A stretch of DNA of 64,000 bases from Eledone cirrhosa (lineage: Eukaryota), in contig OZ024743.1 of the NCBI GenBank assembly GCA_964016885.1, positions 279,930,001 to 279,994,000 on the forward strand, written 5' to 3'. The notes beneath the pieces were generated by a model, which saw only the letters and a list, made by a program, of their open reading frames with translations, had not been told where the DNA came from and did not search any database. Made by a program: the position numbers and the translations under genes. Below are positions 14,240-57,279 of the stretch, in pieces. Numbering within the stretch: the stretch's first letter is position 1; each line of letters starts with the position of its first letter.

Positions 14240-14888
14240 TAAATCCATCAATTAATGGTCCAAGCCGTATGAAGAACTCAATGTAATCCGTATGTAGAAT
14301 ATGTTGTGAAGCAAAGTTTAAAATACAAAGTTTCAACGAGATAATTCATTGGAAGCAGAGTCAAAAAGATACAAATAGTGAAAACAATGAAATTAAACAA
14401 AATACGGGTAATTCATAGTAAAACCCATTATTTTACGATCGCTTCTGTGGGGTAGTTCTCCGTATATTCATTCTATTAATGATCTATGTAAAATATATTA
14501 CAAATTATCAAAGTAAGAAAATATACATACGTCTCCCCTACCCGCCGTCTTCAGAAATAATGAATTTTGTTTATTGAATAATATAAAACATGTATTAACT
14601 GCTTCCGCTAAAGAAGTGGTATTAGCTAATCTTTAGCGGAAGCAGTTAATAATTGTAAAAAGAAGAAAATTAATTATAACCTAACTTGGAAGATTCCCAT
14701 TTCTTATCAGGGCAATAGAAAGGAGTGTGGACTATGTTCCCAAGAAATTTTTGAAATTACTAAATCGAAAGACACTCTATTAAATAAAAGACAGCAATTA
14801 AGTATCGCATGTAACCATAGAATTAGAAAGACATTCAAGTATTATAAATACAACTAAACAAATAAAGAAGAAAATATAAAAGAAAATG

Positions 14889-14924
<36 letters not shown>

Positions 14925-14927
<3 letters not shown>

Positions 14928-15056
14928 CGAAGTAATTGTGGTAAGGAACCAGATGGACCATAACGCACCAGAGTACTCAATAGTAGAGTGGGTAATAGGA
15001 AAAAGTATGACCCCGACGGCAGAGCTCAAGCCGTTTCGACGGCTATTTCTGGACTA
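14925..15056 (-). mobile_element. Short 3'-terminal pLTR copy of the intact-PLE family (family A)
   Basis: Closely similar to 32504-32644; abuts (TA)n. Confidence 0.85.
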
Positions 15057-15104
15057 TAACTAAAATAAGTTATTGGGATATCCAATAACTTATTTTAGTT
15101 ATTG

Positions 15105-28947: not shown

Positions 28948-29216
28948 AATATATTCATATATATATATATATATATAACAATATATTTAGAAACACACAG
29001 ATACATGCGGACACACACATATACATGAATGCATCCACACCCAACCGTGGGTTGAGGGTGTCAACCTCACCGATGTTGCTCAATGAATGACTGGGACAGA
29101 CCATTCCGGTTGAACCAGACTGAACCAGTATCAGAGTTAAGATACATTATGAAGAGAGAAGAAACATTTAGATATAATTAGTAATGAAATGTATCATACC
29201 TAAACTGCTCCTAGAT

Positions 29217-29306
29217 TCCTCGACTACGTAGTTTCGTGGCATAAACAAAAACAATACATCATAAAGATATAGAGTCCCTGCGAGGTCTGCCGACTTATCA
29301 AGAGGA
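29217..29306 (-). ncRNA. Variant type I hammerhead (U3-A8 core, long stem II)
   Basis: Reverse complement of 30105-30194. Confidence 0.75.
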
Positions 29307-29809
29307 TACCTCATTTTACTAGTCTCAAGAACGCGTCTACACGACGTGAGAAAGAATCCCAAAAGGCGGAGGGGGAGATAGTCACGCGATATAACGGTCG
29401 AGAAACAGAGCTAAGCCTCTTATAACCCCGAAGAAAATACCACAGAGGCGGAGGGGGTATTTATATCGAAGCCGTAGAAGAGGTGGTGAAGGAGGCGAGA
29501 AGTATGAGTAATGGCAGCTTTCCAGCAGCCACCACACTTCAAAGATTACTCAACCAGAGGGAGTTATTAACAATATATTTAGAAACACACAGATACATGC
29601 GGACGCACACATATACATGAATGCATCCACACCCAACCGTGAGTTAAGGGTGCCAACCTCACCGATGTTGCTCAATGAATGACTGGGACAGACCAATCCG
29701 GTTGAACCAGACTGAACCAGTATCAGAGTTAAAAATACATTATGAAGAGAGAAGAAACATTTAGATATAATTAGTAATGAAATGTATCATACCTAAACTG
29801 CTCCTAGAT

Positions 29810-29899
29810 TCCTCGACTACGTAGTTTCGTGGCATAAACAAAAACAATACATCATAAAGATATAGAGTCCCTGCGAGGTCTGCCGACTTATCAAGAGGA
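29810..29899 (-). ncRNA. Variant type I hammerhead (U3-A8 core, long stem II)
   Basis: Reverse complement of 30105-30194. Confidence 0.75.
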
Positions 29900-30104
29900 T
29901 ACCTCATTTTACTAGTCCCCTTCACCACCTCTTCTACGGCTTCGATATAAATACCCCCTCCGCCTCTGTGGTATTTTCTTCGGGGTTATAAGAGGCTTAG
30001 CTCTGTTTCTCGACCGTTATATCGCGTGACTATCTCCTCCTCCGCCTTTTGGGATTCTTTCTCACGTCGTGTAGACGCGTTCTTGAGACTAGTAAAATGA
30101 GGTA

Positions 30105-30194
30105 TCCTCTTGATAAGTCGGCAGACCTCGCAGGGACTCTATATCTTTATGATGTATTGTTTTTGTTTATGCCACGAAACTACGTAGTCGAGGA
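30105..30194 (+). ncRNA. Variant type I hammerhead (U3-A8 core, long stem II)
   Basis: TCCTC-TTGATAA-GT(C)GGCA...TGCCAC-GAAA-CTACGTAG-TC-GAGGA; predicted cleavage after C30189. Confidence 0.75.
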
Positions 30195-30263
30195 ATCTAG
30201 GAGCAGTTTAGGTATGATACATTTCATTACTAATTATATCTAAATGTTTCTTCTCTCTTCATA

Positions 30264-31992: not shown

Positions 31993-32189
31993 AATAGGAA
32001 AATGTTTAACCCCGATAGCAGAGCTCAAGCCGTTTCGACGGCTATTTCTAGTCCAGAAATAGCCGTCGAAACGGCTTGAGCTCTGCCGTTGGGGTTAAAC
32101 ATTTTCCTATTACCCACTCTACTAACGTAAGTATTGAGTATTCTCGTGCGTTATGGCTCATCTGGTTCCTTACCACACTTCCTCCGTTA
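31993..32189. mobile_element. Head-to-head short pLTR copies of family A
   Basis: 31993-32048 and 32049-32189 are inverted relative to each other and match 32504-32644; flanked by TA repeats. Confidence 0.85.
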
Positions 32190-32351
32190 TATATATATAT
32201 ATAGTTGTATATATATAGTTGTATATGTATATATATATATATAGTTTTCCAAGAGATGGCTCCATGAATGGACCTGTTATTTTTCTCTAAAAGCAATTTT
32301 TTTCCAATTCCACTCCTCCTTTCCCTTCAATTTATCTAATTTCTCATTCTT

Positions 32352-32465: not shown

Positions 32466-32506
<41 letters not shown>

Positions 32507-32597
32507 CGAAGGAAGTGTGGTAAGGAACCAGGTGGACCATAACGCACCAAAGTACTCAATACTTGAGGTAGTAGAGTGGGTAATAGGAACCAGTAAG

Positions 32598-32691
32598 ACC
32601 CCGACAGCTGAGCTCAAGCCGTTTCGACGGCTAATTCTGGACTAAATGAAAATTTATCCTGGTATTTAAATAGCCAATCTTCTCGAGGGGT
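32598..32691 (-). ncRNA. Variant type I hammerhead (U3-C4...A8 core, long stem II) in the PLE 3' pLTR
   Basis: Minus strand: ACCCC-TCGAGAA-GAT(T)GGCTATTT..31 nt..AATTAGCCGTC-GAAA-CGGCT(TGAGCTC)AGCTG-TC-GGGGT. Confidence 0.7.
32663..32672 (-). promoter_or_regulatory. Putative TATA box (TATTTAAATA) of the pLTR, with Inr-like TCATTTAGT about 20-30 nt from its start
   Basis: Same context as TATAAATACC in families B (~13011) and C (~29946); short copies of family A begin at the Inr-like site. Confidence 0.45.
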
Positions 32692-33793
32692 AATTCCATA
32701 TATGGTCAAAGTGATTGTCAAAAATCAGTAGTAATTCTGTGGTTGCAAATTAGTAGGGGAGATGGTGGCTAAACCTGCCAGTAGAAGAAAGAGGGGAGGG
32801 GGTGGAGTAGACCCAATCGAGCGTTGGTAGTGCCAGCTACAGCTGGGCATGAGGTCAAAGAAGATACAGGGGAGGGGGAGGGGGAGGAAGTCGGAACGGT
32901 AGGTAGAACAATGGGGGGTAGAAATATATAGGAAAGAAAAAATACTGAGAGTGAAGAAAAGCCAATAAGTGTAAAGAAAAAAGTAAAGTAAATTAAAATC
33001 TACGACCTAGGTCTCTAGCTATTGTTAGGCTAGAATAAATAAATAAAGAAAGAAAGAAAGAAGTAAAGAAAGAAATAAAGAAATAACGAAATAAGTAAAA
33101 GAACTAGGTGGGACGGAATAGGCAAGGACCCTTTTAAGAGGTATAAGTACGTAAATGATACGGTGACGGGTCAACAAAAGGGGCCAAAATACTAAAGAGA
33201 CTACCACGAAATAAACAATAAAGGTTTCCATCCCGGGCACAATGCCAGCAATCACCCAGTGCAGCAAAGTGAACTAGTACGAGATAATAATTCTGAGTCC
33301 CGAGAAAAATATATACTAATGCTAACTCTAAAAGATCTAAAACAAGCTACATGAAAGTTCGTACGAAGTAAAGGTCGAATACGGAAAAATAAATTCAGAA
33401 TCCACCCCGCCCAAAAGAAAAGCGAAGAAAGAAATACTGAAACGAAAAAATAAGGCATAAGTGCCACTAAGAAATATAGAGGGCACAGAGAATAGTGGGA
33501 GCGGTCGGGAAAAGGGGACAAGTATCTGGGGTCTAAACCAACTGCTATAAAGGGCGGAGTCCGCCAAATCTATCATAGACTAGGGGAGAGGGTGGGGGTA
33601 CTAAGGCTACAAGGGGCCAAAGGGCAGCCTCGAGTGGGCGAGAAAAGACGCCGACAAAGGAGAAGAGCTGGGGTAGAAGGACTAAGGAGAGAGGGGGGAA
33701 GGAAATAAAGGAAGCAATAAAAGAATACAAAGAAGATCTTACGTCTCCCTTGGCAAGCAGGGGTTACCCATTGCAAAATCGGCAAGTGGGGTG

Positions 33794-35959
33794 TTATAGC
33801 CCTAGTCTACCCCCCGGGTCATTATGGGGTTTGAGGGCGAGATAAGTCCTACGCAATCTATGTTTACATGCAGTAACCAGTTCATCTTTCTTGTTTAGGA
33901 GTTGGTCCGTCGAAAACAGCATTTGTAAAGTTTCCTCCGAGCATAAATTGCACGGACGGCGTCCTCCCGTGTAAGAATTGGCTCTGGACAGTAATCTCCA
34001 AGTGAGATCATAGGTGATGTTGTTGTCCTTGAGGTCCCATATGTGGCCCGAAAGTGTAGTGGCGTGACGCCGGGCCGGGTTTCGGAAGGTATGTCTATGT
34101 TGGTATAGCCGGGTCTTGAAGTCACATGCGGTAAGTCCTATATAGGCTTTGTTGGAGGTATCCGTCCTCACGTTGCACTGGTAGATCACATTACGGTCTC
34201 TGCATCTATTGTCGAGTGGGCAAATAGATCTATCCGGGCAGTTACACCTCCTGGTCGGTTCTCCACTGCTATTTAGGTTATTTCTGCCATCGGGGTTGAG
34301 TTTTTTGTTGTTAGAGGAGACGATGTTTTGTGCGAAGTTTGGTGTAGTGCTGTAAGAGAGTTTGATGGTATTTTTGTTAATTATGTTGTGGTAGCGGTAT
34401 TGTAATGGGAAGTGTTTTTCAATGAGCCTAAAGAATAGTTTCTCGATGGGAGTTGTCACCTCTGCGTTGTGGGGAGGATTGAACCATGTTACATTGCGTG
34501 AGCGGCGGTGTCTCCTGCTGGTTCGGCTAATGGGAGCTGGACAGTAGGATATTTCCTCCCGGAAACCACTCCGCTTGAGGGCCTGGTTGTAATAAGGCGC
34601 ATGTTCATCGAATATCCGCTCATTAGCTGACAAACAGGATGTGCGGAGGGAGATGTTTTTGACCAGGTTGTTTGTGATGTTCCTAGGATGGTTTGATCGG
34701 CGGTGGATGTAGTGCAGATTGTCATTAGGTTTCCTGTATGGGTAGTACAGGTCGTTTTCGAGGTCGAGAGTCACGTCCAGGAAGTTTACTCGGGTCAGGG
34801 ACGTTTGTAGGGTTATTTTAAATCCCCAGTTGCGGAAGAATCTGATTAATTGTTTCCGGACCCGATCTGTACTACTGGGGTTGTACCCTTTAAGGGTAAG
34901 GAGCCCATCATCACGGTACAATCCACCACCGAATGCAGGAAACATATCAGTGAGTTTGGCTATTAGGAATAATCCTATAAGATCTGTGACCTCCGCCGAA
35001 TCCGTGGTGCCCATGCTGACGTCGAAGGGTGAGTCGGGAGCTCTTTTTATCCATTTAGAGTCGTCAAAGAGTAAGACTGTCTTCCTGGCGTGGAGGATGA
35101 TTTTTCTTTCCTGGTCGGTGATGGGCACAAGTGTTTCGGCGAAGTCCAAGGCGGCAGTAAGTAGCGGTAAGGTGATTGAAGCATAGTAGCTCTCTATGTC
35201 GAACTGTATGAATTTAGTTTCTCGTTTATCCTCCATATTGCTGAACCAGGAGATTACTTCCTGGGTGTTGATCCATAGGCTAAGTCGGGTGTGTTGCTTG
35301 ACTTTTGGTATCACGCGGTCTAGGATTTTTTTGCTGATTCTCCCTATGTCGGACTTCGTTGGGTTAATAAGCCTGATAGAGGGTTTACGGTCAAAATCGG
35401 ATTTATGGTCCTTGAGTGTGAAGTATGGTGTCCGTGGGTCTAGAGGTTCCGTGCGGTCGGCGACCCCGAGGCTGGAGGTGATTTGTTGTCCATCTCGATT
35501 TATGTCCTCGATGCAAGAGTAGTTGGCCTTTTTATAGGTGGAGTTTAGGCTGCTCCTGATCAGTGTGTGGTATCTGTCAGGGTTGACAAAGTATAGGTTC
35601 CCAGTTTTATCCGAATGCACCATGATGTCATTTGTGTTATCATACTCTGTTAAGTTGCTACGGAGTTTTTGTAGGAATCGGTTGTGTCTGGGTTTAAATT
35701 TAATGTTCTTGACCAGTTGGAAGAGGTCATTCTCGAAGGGTGCGAGCAAGGGGTTCAGGGGCGGAGATTTGAAGGTAATAAATCCGAATCTCTCCTTGGT
35801 GCCGAAGTCTTGGTTGTCGCAATATCTGTCATAGAAAAAAGTTCTCCATCTAAGTCTTTTCGCAAATAGATTGATTTTTTGCGTGAGCATCCGAAGGTTA
35901 AGTTTTTTCGGTGGGATTGGGATGTTCTTGGTAGAGAAGTGAATGTTGTGTTTTCGCAT
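33794..35959 (-). CDS. PLE polyprotein: reverse transcriptase + Cys linker + C-terminal GIY-YIG endonuclease (721 aa from MRKHNIHF)
   Basis: RT motifs FIQFDIESYYASI, DVSMGTTDSAEV, GLYRDDGL, VNFLDVTL, YRKP/SNHP; linker CNCPDRSICPLDNRC; endonuclease NVIYQC..AYIGLT..FKTRLYQH..LSGHIW..CNLCSEE..LLNK. The ORF-track extension to 36211 runs through the terminal repeat and microsatellite. Confidence 0.95.
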   Translation of the reverse strand: MRKHNIHFSTKNIPIPPKKLNLRMLTQKINLFAKRLRWRTFFYDRYCDNQDFGTKERFGFITFKSPPLNPLLAPFENDLFQLVKNIKFKPRHNRFLQKLRSNLTEYDNTNDIMVHSDKTGNLYFVNPDRYHTLIRSSLNSTYKKANYSCIEDINRDGQQITSSLGVADRTEPLDPRTPYFTLKDHKSDFDRKPSIRLINPTKSDIGRISKKILDRVIPKVKQHTRLSLWINTQEVISWFSNMEDKRETKFIQFDIESYYASITLPLLTAALDFAETLVPITDQERKIILHARKTVLLFDDSKWIKRAPDSPFDVSMGTTDSAEVTDLIGLFLIAKLTDMFPAFGGGLYRDDGLLTLKGYNPSSTDRVRKQLIRFFRNWGFKITLQTSLTRVNFLDVTLDLENDLYYPYRKPNDNLHYIHRRSNHPRNITNNLVKNISLRTSCLSANERIFDEHAPYYNQALKRSGFREEISYCPAPISRTSRRHRRSRNVTWFNPPHNAEVTTPIEKLFFRLIEKHFPLQYRYHNIINKNTIKLSYSTTPNFAQNIVSSNNKKLNPDGRNNLNSSGEPTRRCNCPDRSICPLDNRCRDRNVIYQCNVRTDTSNKAYIGLTACDFKTRLYQHRHTFRNPARRHATTLSGHIWDLKDNNITYDLTWRLLSRANSYTGGRRPCNLCSEETLQMLFSTDQLLNKKDELVTACKHRLRRTYLALKPHNDPGGRLGL

Positions 35960-36128
35960 GGTGCGGGTGAAATGAATTGAGCTTAGCGGAAAAGTCTGGA
36001 TACGGCGTGGTAGGGTCGGAAAGTGCTCTACTACGGGAGTATGAGCTAGATAACGAAGGAAGTGTGGTAAGGAACCAGGTGGACCATAAAGCACCAAAGT
36101 ACTCAATACTTGAGGTAGTAGAGTGGGT

Positions 36129-36171
<43 letters not shown>

Positions 36172-36467: not shown

Positions 36468-39400
36468 CAATATATTAACAAATGGAAACTATATTTATAA
36501 AACCATATTTATTTCATTATACATATTTCAAGGGCCACCAAGGCAGATTATGGTGCGCTTTCATCAGATAAAATATAATATAGATTAGTTTTATAAATAA
36601 ATATTGACATACCCTGAAAAATGTAACCTTTACTACAATTAAATGTTGAGTGCTTTATATCAGTTATAAAAATATTTTGCTTGTTGTATCCCAACAAATT
36701 AAATATAACCTCTACATACATATATTTATATATATATATGTATATATATTGAGTTCTGTGTTTGCTTACACAGACAAGACCTGCTGGTGAATGAACATTG
36801 ATGTCCAGGAAACCTCTGGTTGAAACTCTCATACATAAACCTACTCGATAAACTTATAGTAATGTGTCATTTGAGGGAATTTGTTTGATATTTCTAGCAG
36901 TTGAAACGATCCCACAGGTGTTCTCTCGTGCTATTGGTTAGTTTCCTCTCATGAACGTCCATAGCTGCTATTTTTCTCATCCAGTCACATTTGTCATTAT
37001 AGCTACACCATTTCCCGTTCTTTATATCCTGCGTTCAAATCCCGCCAAGGTCAACTTTGCTTTCCTCCTATCGAGGTCGATAAAATAAAGTACCAGTCAA
37101 GTACTGGGGTCGATATAATTGACTTGCCCTTCCCTCCAATATTTCTGTTCTTAAGCATAAATTAGAAACCGTTATTGCTACACTATGATAACCTCCATCA
37201 CTAGTTTTTCGCGGGAAAGATTACTATTGTTGCTCTGATTTTTATTGTTGTTTGTGATTGTTATAGTTGCTGCTGCTGTGGTAACTGCTGCTCTCGCTGC
37301 TACAACTGTTGTTGATGCTATTATATCTTGCTAATACTGTGGCTGTTAACGTTATAGATGCTGCTGTTGTTATTGTCTTGGTAGTTGTTGTAACTGATAC
37401 TGCTGCTGTTGTTGATGCTATCATATCTTGCTAATACTGCTGCTGTTAACGTTATAACTGCTGCTGTTAATCCCATAACTGCTGCTGTTGCTAACACTAT
37501 AACTGCTACTACAGCTACTGTTATTTTCAGTGCTGATGCTGGTTTTGTTACTGCTACTGCTACTGCTATTGTTTTGCTACTACTTCTGCTTCCTTTGTTA
37601 TAATTGCTGATACTGCTGCTAGTATTACTCTTATGAGAGAAGTTACTGCTGCTGCTGTTGTGATTGATAGCTACTGTTTTTGTTTTTGTTGGTGATTTAA
37701 CTCTACTGCTGCTGTTGTATTAATGCTGTTGGCAATAATTTCATTACTAATACCAATTTTTGCTGATTTTATTGTCATTTTTCAGGCTATTGTTGCTATT
37801 GACGAGGTTTGCTATGCTGTGACACCTTGGCCAGTGGCATCTATGGAAATTGGGGGTCATATAAATAACAAAACTCTAGCCATGGTGCCGTGCGGTAGGA
37901 TCGAAACTTAAACTATATATTTGAGAAATGAACTTCTGAGCCACATACTTATACTGATTTGTATGACTATTAGATTTGTTAATGTGTTTGTTGTTGTTAT
38001 TTTTTTATCCTAGATTAGTTCAGCCATCATTCAGCATATATATTATTAATGGCGTTCCAGCAAAAACTATGCCGTGTTAATTTCATATTATATCCTATAT
38101 TATCACCGAGAGTGTGATTTTGTAGCAAACATGGTTGTTCTCTTCTTTATAGAGAGAGGCCACCACCTATGCGCTTAATTTACTCTCCGGTATCCGCGTT
38201 ATTCAAAAATCATCCATGCTCAAGGCTTTTATATAAATCTTCTTTTGTACGACGAGGCTTTGATGGAAGCGTATCCTCAGGTTCTCTGGAGGCTGAATAA
38301 ACATGATTCGGGTAGAAATTAGAACCTTCCCCCTTACGTAGAATACGATGCTGAGAGTTTTACATTTTTTTTTTATTTTTAAAAAAGGATTTTCCGACAG
38401 CCTATGTTGAAAGACTGATGAGGATGATGGTTGTAGTTTATCAGGAGAAGGACAGGAGTGGTTATTTGTATTGATGAGGCGGAAGTTTATAGTTGTTGCA
38501 TATGATAATGTTCATGATAGTAGTTAATTGCTGTAATAATTGTAGTAGTGTAACTGATATTATATGTGATGTTTATCTGTCACTTAAAAGGCTGAGTTTA
38601 AAATACTACAACATCAAAAGTTGCCAATTGGTACACTTTGCATTATTGTCACCATACTCAAGGTTGTTCAAGTAGCAAAACGTGGTAACAATGACCATTG
38701 ACCATTTCTTACATTGGAAGATGGGCAAACAGCTGCAGTGGTGTGGGTGGGAAAGTCGAAGAAAGATAGAGTTGTTTTTATCGACCCAACAACTTTATTG
38801 ATTTTGTCGACACGACTCCGGAAAGAGAAATGACAAAGTTGACCTGGGTGTGATTTGAACCCAGAAAGTAAGTAAAGAAACATTTCCAAATATCGAGAGT
38901 CATTTTTGTTTTTGTTACTGTTCTTGTTCTACCAGATTTTCAGTCGCAAAAACACTTTGTGAACCACACTCGACACGTTCAGTCCTTGTTGCCTATAGAC
39001 TGCACCGTTGATTTAGGTGTTTTTTTGTTTTTTATTTGTTTGTTGTTTTTTGCTGGAGCATGCCTCTTTAAGTACGAGTTTGTGACAGTCAACTTCATTG
39101 GTCTTGTGTGTTAATTGAGCTCTTGGCACTGCCGTGCAAATTTCTGTTCGCCCACTTCTCTGCTGCAATATCCATCAGTTTCTCTTCTCTGACATTGGGT
39201 TCTAGTTCAGCGTACTTCTTCATCTCATTCGTACATCTCCGACACTATCTCATAATTCTGTAATGATATTGAACGCCTTCGTGTCTCTCATAGCAATAAC
39301 AACATCAATAACAAAACCAACAACTTTATTACGAACCAAGACAGTGTGTAGCAGTCGTATTTCTCTTCAATCACAATTTTCTGCTGAAAAATAAAAGGGG

Positions 39401-57050: not shown

Positions 57051-57094
<44 letters not shown>

Positions 57095-57099
<5 letters not shown>

Positions 57100-57250
57100 A
57101 AAAAGTATGACCCCGACGGCAGAGCTCAAGCCGTTTCGACGGCTATTTCTGGACTGAAATAGTCCTATTTCCCACTCTACTACCCTAAGTATTGAGTACT
57201 CTGGTGCGTTATGGTCCATCTGGTTCCTTACCACAATTCTTTTGTTTTAT
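57095..57250. mobile_element. Head-to-head short pLTR pieces of family A
   Basis: 57095-57156 matches 14996-15055; 57164-57250 is the inverted 3' terminus; (TA)n flanks. Confidence 0.8.
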
Positions 57251-57279
57251 ACATATATATATATATATATATATATAGG

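Follow-up and report, generated by a model that had tools for sequence, protein, structure and literature searches.

The window, a 64,000-nt stretch of the Eledone cirrhosa genome (contig OZ024743.1), contains a young Hydra-type Penelope-like element (PLE). Its type I hammerhead, with the family core UUGANAA and a 54-nt stem II domain, probably cuts its RNA after the GUC triplet some of the time. The C at core position 4 of the window copy is a private change that is predicted to weaken the ribozyme.

The element and its hammerhead homologue

The element lies at 32500 to 36132 (minus strand), between (TA)n tracts, in a microsatellite-rich host genome of 3.0 Gb. Its 3,633 bp comprise one unit plus an 86-bp tail. 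The genome also contains arrays of 3,531-bp units joined head to tail, to which the element is 97% identical from end to end; these arrays have open ORFs and carry the motif in each unit. In agreement with the initial annotation of an intact PLE, a 721-aa ORF (33794 to 35959, minus) encodes a reverse transcriptase (RT; DKTG, FDIES, YRDD) and, at the C terminus, an endonuclease (EN) of the GIY-YIG type, whose region holds CxCX5C (CNCPDRSIC), CxxC (CNLC), and CxH (CKH) motifs. A Pfam scan of the ORF found no family. Its relatives in the database number at least 2,136 proteins, and most of the best 120 are ~40% identical. We checked the motifs against the Hydra-clade description in the available text of Craig et al. 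2021 (PMC8557442). The single ORF, the order of RT and C-terminal GIY-YIG EN, DKT, the CxCX5C linker, CxxC, CxH, and (TA)n insertion all agree with it, RWK is RWR in the window's ORF, and two typical traits are absent, the core being U3-A8 instead of CUGANGA and the unit 3,531 to 3,550 bp instead of <3 kb. By its motifs and by 36 to 53% identity to RWK/DKT proteins, the element is assigned to the Hydra clade. Endonuclease matches number at least 150 and were 100% identical in all 150 scored; the family is, judging from its sequences, very young.

The 86-bp tail is found at both ends of the element. Its 3' copy (32500 to 32585, minus) lies between insertion end site 1 (32583) and site 2 (~32503), and its 5' copy (36047 to 36132, minus), where the element start is site 1, is without an upstream hammerhead. 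Elsewhere in the window are 5'-truncated sisters, namely, an inverted copy with the 3' half of the hammerhead and the tail (14886 to 15066, minus) and inverted pairs of arms at 31993 to 32239 and 57077 to 57275 (no single strand). The initial annotation had read pairing from sister copies; they do carry GCCG and AAATAGCC, but, being inverted or cut short at the 5' end and missing core positions 3 to 9, they cannot by themselves show pairing. A coding fragment of another Hydra-type endonuclease (14630 to 14836), 40% identical to the window's ORF, adjoins the sister arm at 14886. Members of a dispersed ~150-bp repeat family lie in both orientations across the window, at 37019 to 37177 and in at least 10 other places.

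The hammerhead motif (32598 to 32691, minus) sits just upstream of the 86-bp repeated tail and not inside it. Read from 32691 down to 32598, its letters are those first described: ACCCC, UCGAGAA, the stem II domain, GAAA, CGGCU-UGAGCUC-AGCUG, UC, and GGGGU, with C17 at 32603 and the predicted cut between 32603 and 32602. CUGANGA is absent from both strands of the element, and an expanded type I hammerhead homologue, its 3-8 pair U3-A8, its loop III palindromic, and its triplet GUC, is supported at the Hydra-clade position. Core positions 3 to 9 (32680 to 32686, minus) read UCGAGAA in the window copy and UUGAGAA in its subfamily. The 54-nt stem II domain (32626 to 32679, minus) has a proximal helix interrupted by a bulge and a U-U mismatch, an asymmetric loop, and a predicted inner hairpin (32659 to 32639); the latter falls within what had been called a 31-nt loop. 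Stem III with the palindromic UGAGCUCA (32604 to 32622, minus; GAA(A) at 32625 to 32622) is predicted to form as a monomer or a dimer, and for the isolated 20-mer the predicted energies are -26.5 (duplex) versus -5.0 (hairpin) kcal/mol. Past a variable bulge, stem I is predicted to extend (32586 to 32697, minus) by pairing of GGAAUU (32697 to 32692) with GGUUCC (32591 to 32586); the GGAA/UUCC extension is paired in 98% of cells and shows no double-sided changes. Rfam gave no hammerhead match in 32500 to 32900 at E ≤ 10 and none among the matches listed for the whole window (150 of 254).

The family core is UUGANAA (U3-A8), since genome-wide counts make C4 private to single copies. Exact patterns recovered 3,295 U4, 9 C4, and 3 A4 copies, and the U4-to-C mutation at 32685 (minus) is thus present in 9 of 3,307 counted copies, which are scattered over the subfamilies and form no clade. 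Among the copies recruited through the endonuclease, U4 occupies 36 of 37 rows, the sole exception being the window copy, and U4 makes up 115,646 of 115,698 depth in the contigs of run X1, which are perhaps not independent of the assembly. UCGAGAA as the family core is ruled out by these observations. Seven apparent C4 cases among 30 early loci arose because loci had been ranked by likeness to the window. CpG decay was likewise rejected as the origin of U4, neighboring CpGs being intact and U4 being found in all subfamilies. Another hammerhead family of this genome (L192 + 1400, L346, L183) has CCGA (C4) in three copies and CUGA in others, the full core CCGACGA being found twice (L192 and L346); this family may include a real U4C subfamily. 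According to the accessible part of PMC3088659, U4C lowers hammerhead activity in vitro and is tolerated in a viroid.

The window copy also has a private C-to-U change at 32676 (C in 36 of the 37 endonuclease-recruited rows), and together with C4 it is predicted to misfold this copy. The hammerhead fold of the initial annotation holds for the family-majority copy L002, of which the minimum free energy (MFE) structure is the hammerhead three-way junction (z only -0.52), but not for the window 94-mer, whose MFE structure is a different one (z -0.99). The hammerhead was sampled in 5% of structures for the window copy versus 61% for L002, and in 13% for a copy with U4 but the window's stem II change. 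The predicted competitor is a hairpin, AGCCGU-CGAA-ACGGCU, that would hide the catalytic GAA. In 8 of 12 copies tested the hammerhead was sampled at ≤10%, and folding z-scores are weak. A junction of three helices, with stem I open, appears both in the L002 MFE and in cross-lineage compensatory pairs of stems I and II. A possible stem I-stem II contact, ACCAG/CUGGU, can pair only in the youngest subfamilies and is not a conserved pseudoknot of the family.

Conservation of the core and variation of the 3-8 pair

When positions 5, 6, 7, and 9 were left free, a hand count of the first 100 of 7,179 copies gave G5 in 98, A6 in 100, and A9 in 98, with N7 distributed as G58/A18/C12/U12. Between subfamilies G5, A6, A9, GAAA, and U16.1-C17 are unchanged and N7 is changed. 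The majorities of eight subfamilies, some of them small groups, differ at 0 of 10 invariant core, 4 of 40 helix (three to G-U), and 31 of 74 other positions, gap columns being counted among the last (Fisher p 3e-5). At the family level the full conserved core is present (U4, G5, A6, A9, G12, A13, A14, A15.1-U16.1, and H17, with N7 free); the window copy departs from it at U4. A related, metagenome-derived element (L033) has a canonical hammerhead in the same place, before the same tail hairpin.

A relaxed descriptor, which favors long stems (recovered stem II domains of 26 to 63 nt), was run over 1.264 Mb of unbiased DNA, where it matched 44 type I motifs, against none in the reversed control; the 44 were 31 CUGANGA, 10 U3-A8, 2 C3-A8, and 1 C4. 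Nine of the 10 U3-A8 matches belong to a second lineage with the core UUGAUAA, and three lie within the window between 29216 and 30196, one on the plus strand (30104 to 30196, with a 59-nt stem II domain) and two on the minus strand, 593 nt apart (29809 to 29900 and 29216 to 29307). At loci L283 and L327 the second lineage is found near ORF remnants 31 to 48% identical to the window's protein. Double-sided changes were seen in 0 of 27 pairs within the window lineage. Across the two lineages (4 + 4 copies), 95% of cells are paired and 7 of 13 pairs are changed on both sides, against ≤56% in slid controls, in a test that comprises few independent events and a structure chosen by the analyst. Selection on the fold is supported because N7 takes all four bases, G5, A6, and A9 are fixed, and the second lineage compensates 7 of 13 pairs. 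Other families in this genome join 9- to 12-bp stem II arms to canonical cores; a long stem II is common among its hammerheads and not special to the window family.

The second-lineage motifs of the window are located in three ~593-nt units (29073 to 30260), two in tandem on the minus strand and one inverted, with a longest ORF of 80 aa. These units look like a nonautonomous, retrozyme-type derivative of a Hydra PLE. In this lineage (30097 to 30130, L283, L327), UGAGGU 5' of stem I could, by eye, pair with the stem II-loop ACCUC(A/G), a possible pseudoknot tertiary contact.

Most copies, including the window's subfamily, have U3-A8 at the 3-8 pair. The C3-A8 mismatch occupies its own tree branches and accounts for 25 of the first 100 of the 7,179 copies, U3-G8 is found in 20 of 26 copies of the oldest (most diverged) subfamily, and C3-G8 is seen in just 11 of 59 G8 matches. 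The amplified C3-A8 state and the U3-G8 state of the oldest subfamily speak against strict 3-8 pairing. The initial annotation had expected full-length homologues to retain G5, A6, A9, and 3-8 complementarity; the three bases are kept, but the complementarity is broken in 1,559 C3-A8 copies. Divergence from the subfamily majority, in groups of 3 to 36 copies each, falls from 0.059 (U3-G8) through 0.025 to 0.030 (U3-A8) and 0.024 (C3-A8) to 0.018 to 0.009 (U3-A8). A first tree omitted 48 rows with divergent or inverted flanks; a tree of a shorter region has 82 rows and is midpoint-rooted only. From the falling divergence and the midpoint-rooted tree we infer the order U3-G8, U3-A8, C3-A8, and again U3-A8.

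Insertion ends and copies that start at the predicted cut

In 176 insertion arms with stem III, 77 end ~20 nt and 75 ~100 nt past the cut, 5 enter the next unit, 11 continue with a G-run substitution, and 8 are unclassified; none was seen to end at the predicted cut. Insertions end downstream of the cut, and therefore most templates would have been RNA that was uncut or re-joined at the ribozyme. In the window lineage each insertion end lies 3 to 5 nt 5' of a bulged hairpin, and two such hairpins, noted at L173 to L202 too, delimit the tail. Hairpin 1 (RCUC-stem-UW-GAGY-ACU; 32551 to 32577, minus) is 5 nt 3' of insertion end site 1, and hairpin 2 (36022 to 36046, minus) is 3 nt 3' of site 2. 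The distance is ~4 nt in a second family and ~5 nt in lineage 2. The bulged hairpin was counted 14,419 times in the genome versus 15 in the control, is present in L033, and can be seen by eye, with compensated upper stems, in the published Hydra-2_Amil and Hydra-2_Ajap and twice in Hydra-1_Ajap. This hairpin is a candidate signal for RT positioning.

A pattern for 5' truncations at 0 to -7 gave 2,624 matches, the first 100 rows of which were counted by hand; truncations lying 3' of the cut escape it, as do symmetric junctions at -2 and beyond. Thirty of these rows (22 loci) start exactly at G1.1, while 6, 6, 2, 4, and 7 start at -1 to -5, respectively, and the rest comprise intact copies having indels of one letter or switches within repeated letters. 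In four inverted pairs (L064, L221, L232, and L237) both arms begin at G1.1 with 0 to 2 letters between them. The unbiased 1.264 Mb contained 47 arms, 5 with the whole motif and up to 27 truncated 31 to 48 nt upstream; of 13 nearby truncations the script placed 1 at the cut (p 0.50), and 2 to 3 were found there by eye. The minority of copies that start at the predicted cut suggests occasional cleavage. Loose contig ends at 32602 and 32603 (2 contigs each, run X3) and one strand-switch joint at 32602 had been considered as signs of cleavage as well and were set aside as too few. Most copies keep only the 3' half of the ribozyme, a 30-mer being present in 13,298 exact copies. A strong hotspot of 5' truncation and inversion is located at ~32637 to 32650 (L069 to L098), immediately 5' of stem II's 3' strand.

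These observations fit a scheme in which reverse transcription would start just 5' of the two bulged hairpins, at points 20 or 100 nt to the 3' side of the cut. If tandem-array transcripts are cleaved, RNA of unit length with G1.1 as its first base would be released, and run-off of cDNA at a cleaved RNA end would give copies beginning exactly at G1.1. Two cuts could not free a unit from the window copy by itself, since it is without an upstream hammerhead; array transcripts could yield one. The competing hairpin is predicted to keep the ribozyme partly off, and protein help or a dimer formed via the stem III palindrome is for that reason plausible. More tentatively, and with less confidence than we place in occasional cutting by the window family, the scheme may extend to a clade of large U3-A8 hammerheads in PLE lineages with proteins only ~30 to 50% identical; these ribozymes would cut germ-line RNA and leave cut-start copies, one lineage would have walked from U3-G8 through U3-A8 and C3-A8 to U3-A8 with each state amplifying, and the twin hairpins would set the two RT starts.

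Alternatively, the hammerhead-derived motif may no longer cut, its fold being kept for RT binding and the G1.1 starts being RT stalls at the three-way junction. We consider this unlikely, even though the C3-A8 and U3-G8 states were each amplified, no end at the cut was seen among the 176 arms, and another PLE can insert in vitro without cleavage (PMC11167929). G1.1 starts occur in the C3-A8 subfamily too (~6 loci among the matches listed, by hand count). Against loss of cutting, the catalytic positions have stayed constant between subfamilies as N7 changed, and the second lineage has the same core with compensated stems. Furthermore, in several inversions both arms stop at one and the same base, often with extra letters, which would fit run-off better than stalling. 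Less likely still is an efficient monomer ribozyme that cuts every transcript, with unit RNA circularized and insertions copied from circles across the re-joined site. The length of stem III would suffice for a monomer fold, exact head-to-tail arrays of 3,531-bp units exist, and insertions read through the site with no arm seen ending there, but the competing hairpin dominates most subfamilies, and mismatch cores have amplified well. The initial proposal that UCGAGAA is a functional variant core defining an expanded PLE hammerhead class is very improbable, because C4, although present in the window, recurrent in 9 copies across subfamilies, matched by the two CCGACGA cores of another family, and tolerated in a viroid (available text of PMC3088659), is a background mutation in 0.3% of copies (9 C4 versus 3,295 U4) that defines no clade, is nearly absent from run X1 contigs, and is predicted to misfold. 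Occasional cutting by a UUGANAA hammerhead is the reading that we prefer.

Relation to known PLE hammerheads

The window family resembles Hydra-clade PLEs, as described in the available text of PMC8557442, in its C-terminal EN, DKT, CxCX5C, and CxxC/CxH motifs, (TA)n targets, shared tail hairpin, and sense type I hammerhead in the 3' UTR. The Hydra rows available from File S2 of that paper all have CUGANGA, a 3- to 7-bp stem II, and a very short stem III; the window family differs in its U3-A8 pair, 54-nt stem II domain, 5- to 6-bp stem III with an 8-nt palindrome, and 3.5-kb unit. Hydra PLEs are already scored as hammerhead-bearing in the same text, and the 3' ends of the octopus elements Naiad_Obim and Naiad_Ovul have GAAA upstream of CUGAUGA, unlike the window architecture. 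The suggestion that PLEs without a recognized hammerhead use this expanded class thus found no footing in the Hydra elements or in the two Naiad ends.

That U3-A8 is a recognized natural variant was confirmed by the available text of Perreault et al. 2011 (PMC3088659), where it is reported active and where the accessible part gives it no PLE context. Within PLEs it was confirmed by the accessible text of Cervera and De la Pena 2014 (PMC4209133), which reports ~1,300 matches for the U3-A8 core of the Schistosoma element Cercyon. Cercyon shares with the window family the U3-A8 PLE core, a longer-than-usual helix II, a palindromic helix III, and proposed dimer action, and differs from it in a helix II of 7 to 8 bp and a minimal helix III; the available text of PMC4209133 makes no mention of amplified C3-A8 or U3-G8 states for PLE hammerheads. 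Poseidon PAc of Anolis (Frangieh et al. 2024, PMC11167929) likewise has two RT start sites delimiting a tail, AT-rich targets, a hammerhead upstream of the start sites, and uncut RNA as the main template. Unlike the window family, it has a canonical C3-G8 core and no reads beginning or ending at the cut, and its start site is an AC-rich stem-loop rather than twin bulged hairpins; its hammerhead is assisted by protein and is not required for insertion in vitro (PMC11167929). A literature search, in the parts of the sources available, found no report of amplified C3-A8 cores, cut-start genomic PLE copies, or the twin hairpin. The motif is a real hammerhead homologue of modest novelty, a U3-A8 core with a large branched stem II on a known PLE feature. 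The core itself is already published for PLE hammerheads; in the window family it sits in an unusually large frame.

PLE hammerheads cut poorly in vitro and were dispensable in the one reconstituted system. In the present family, copies number in the thousands and can be ordered by age, the 3-8 pair varies naturally and includes an amplified mismatch, and some copies start at the predicted cut. The combination of these three makes the role of a PLE hammerhead directly testable. Rfam, like descriptors that require CUGANGA and a short stem II, misses such motifs. If the wider reading of a cutting U3-A8 clade is true, the family would document, in natural sequences, how compensation in the active site of a ribozyme passed through a mismatch, and twin hairpins setting both RT start sites would explain the PLE "tail" in Hydra elements.
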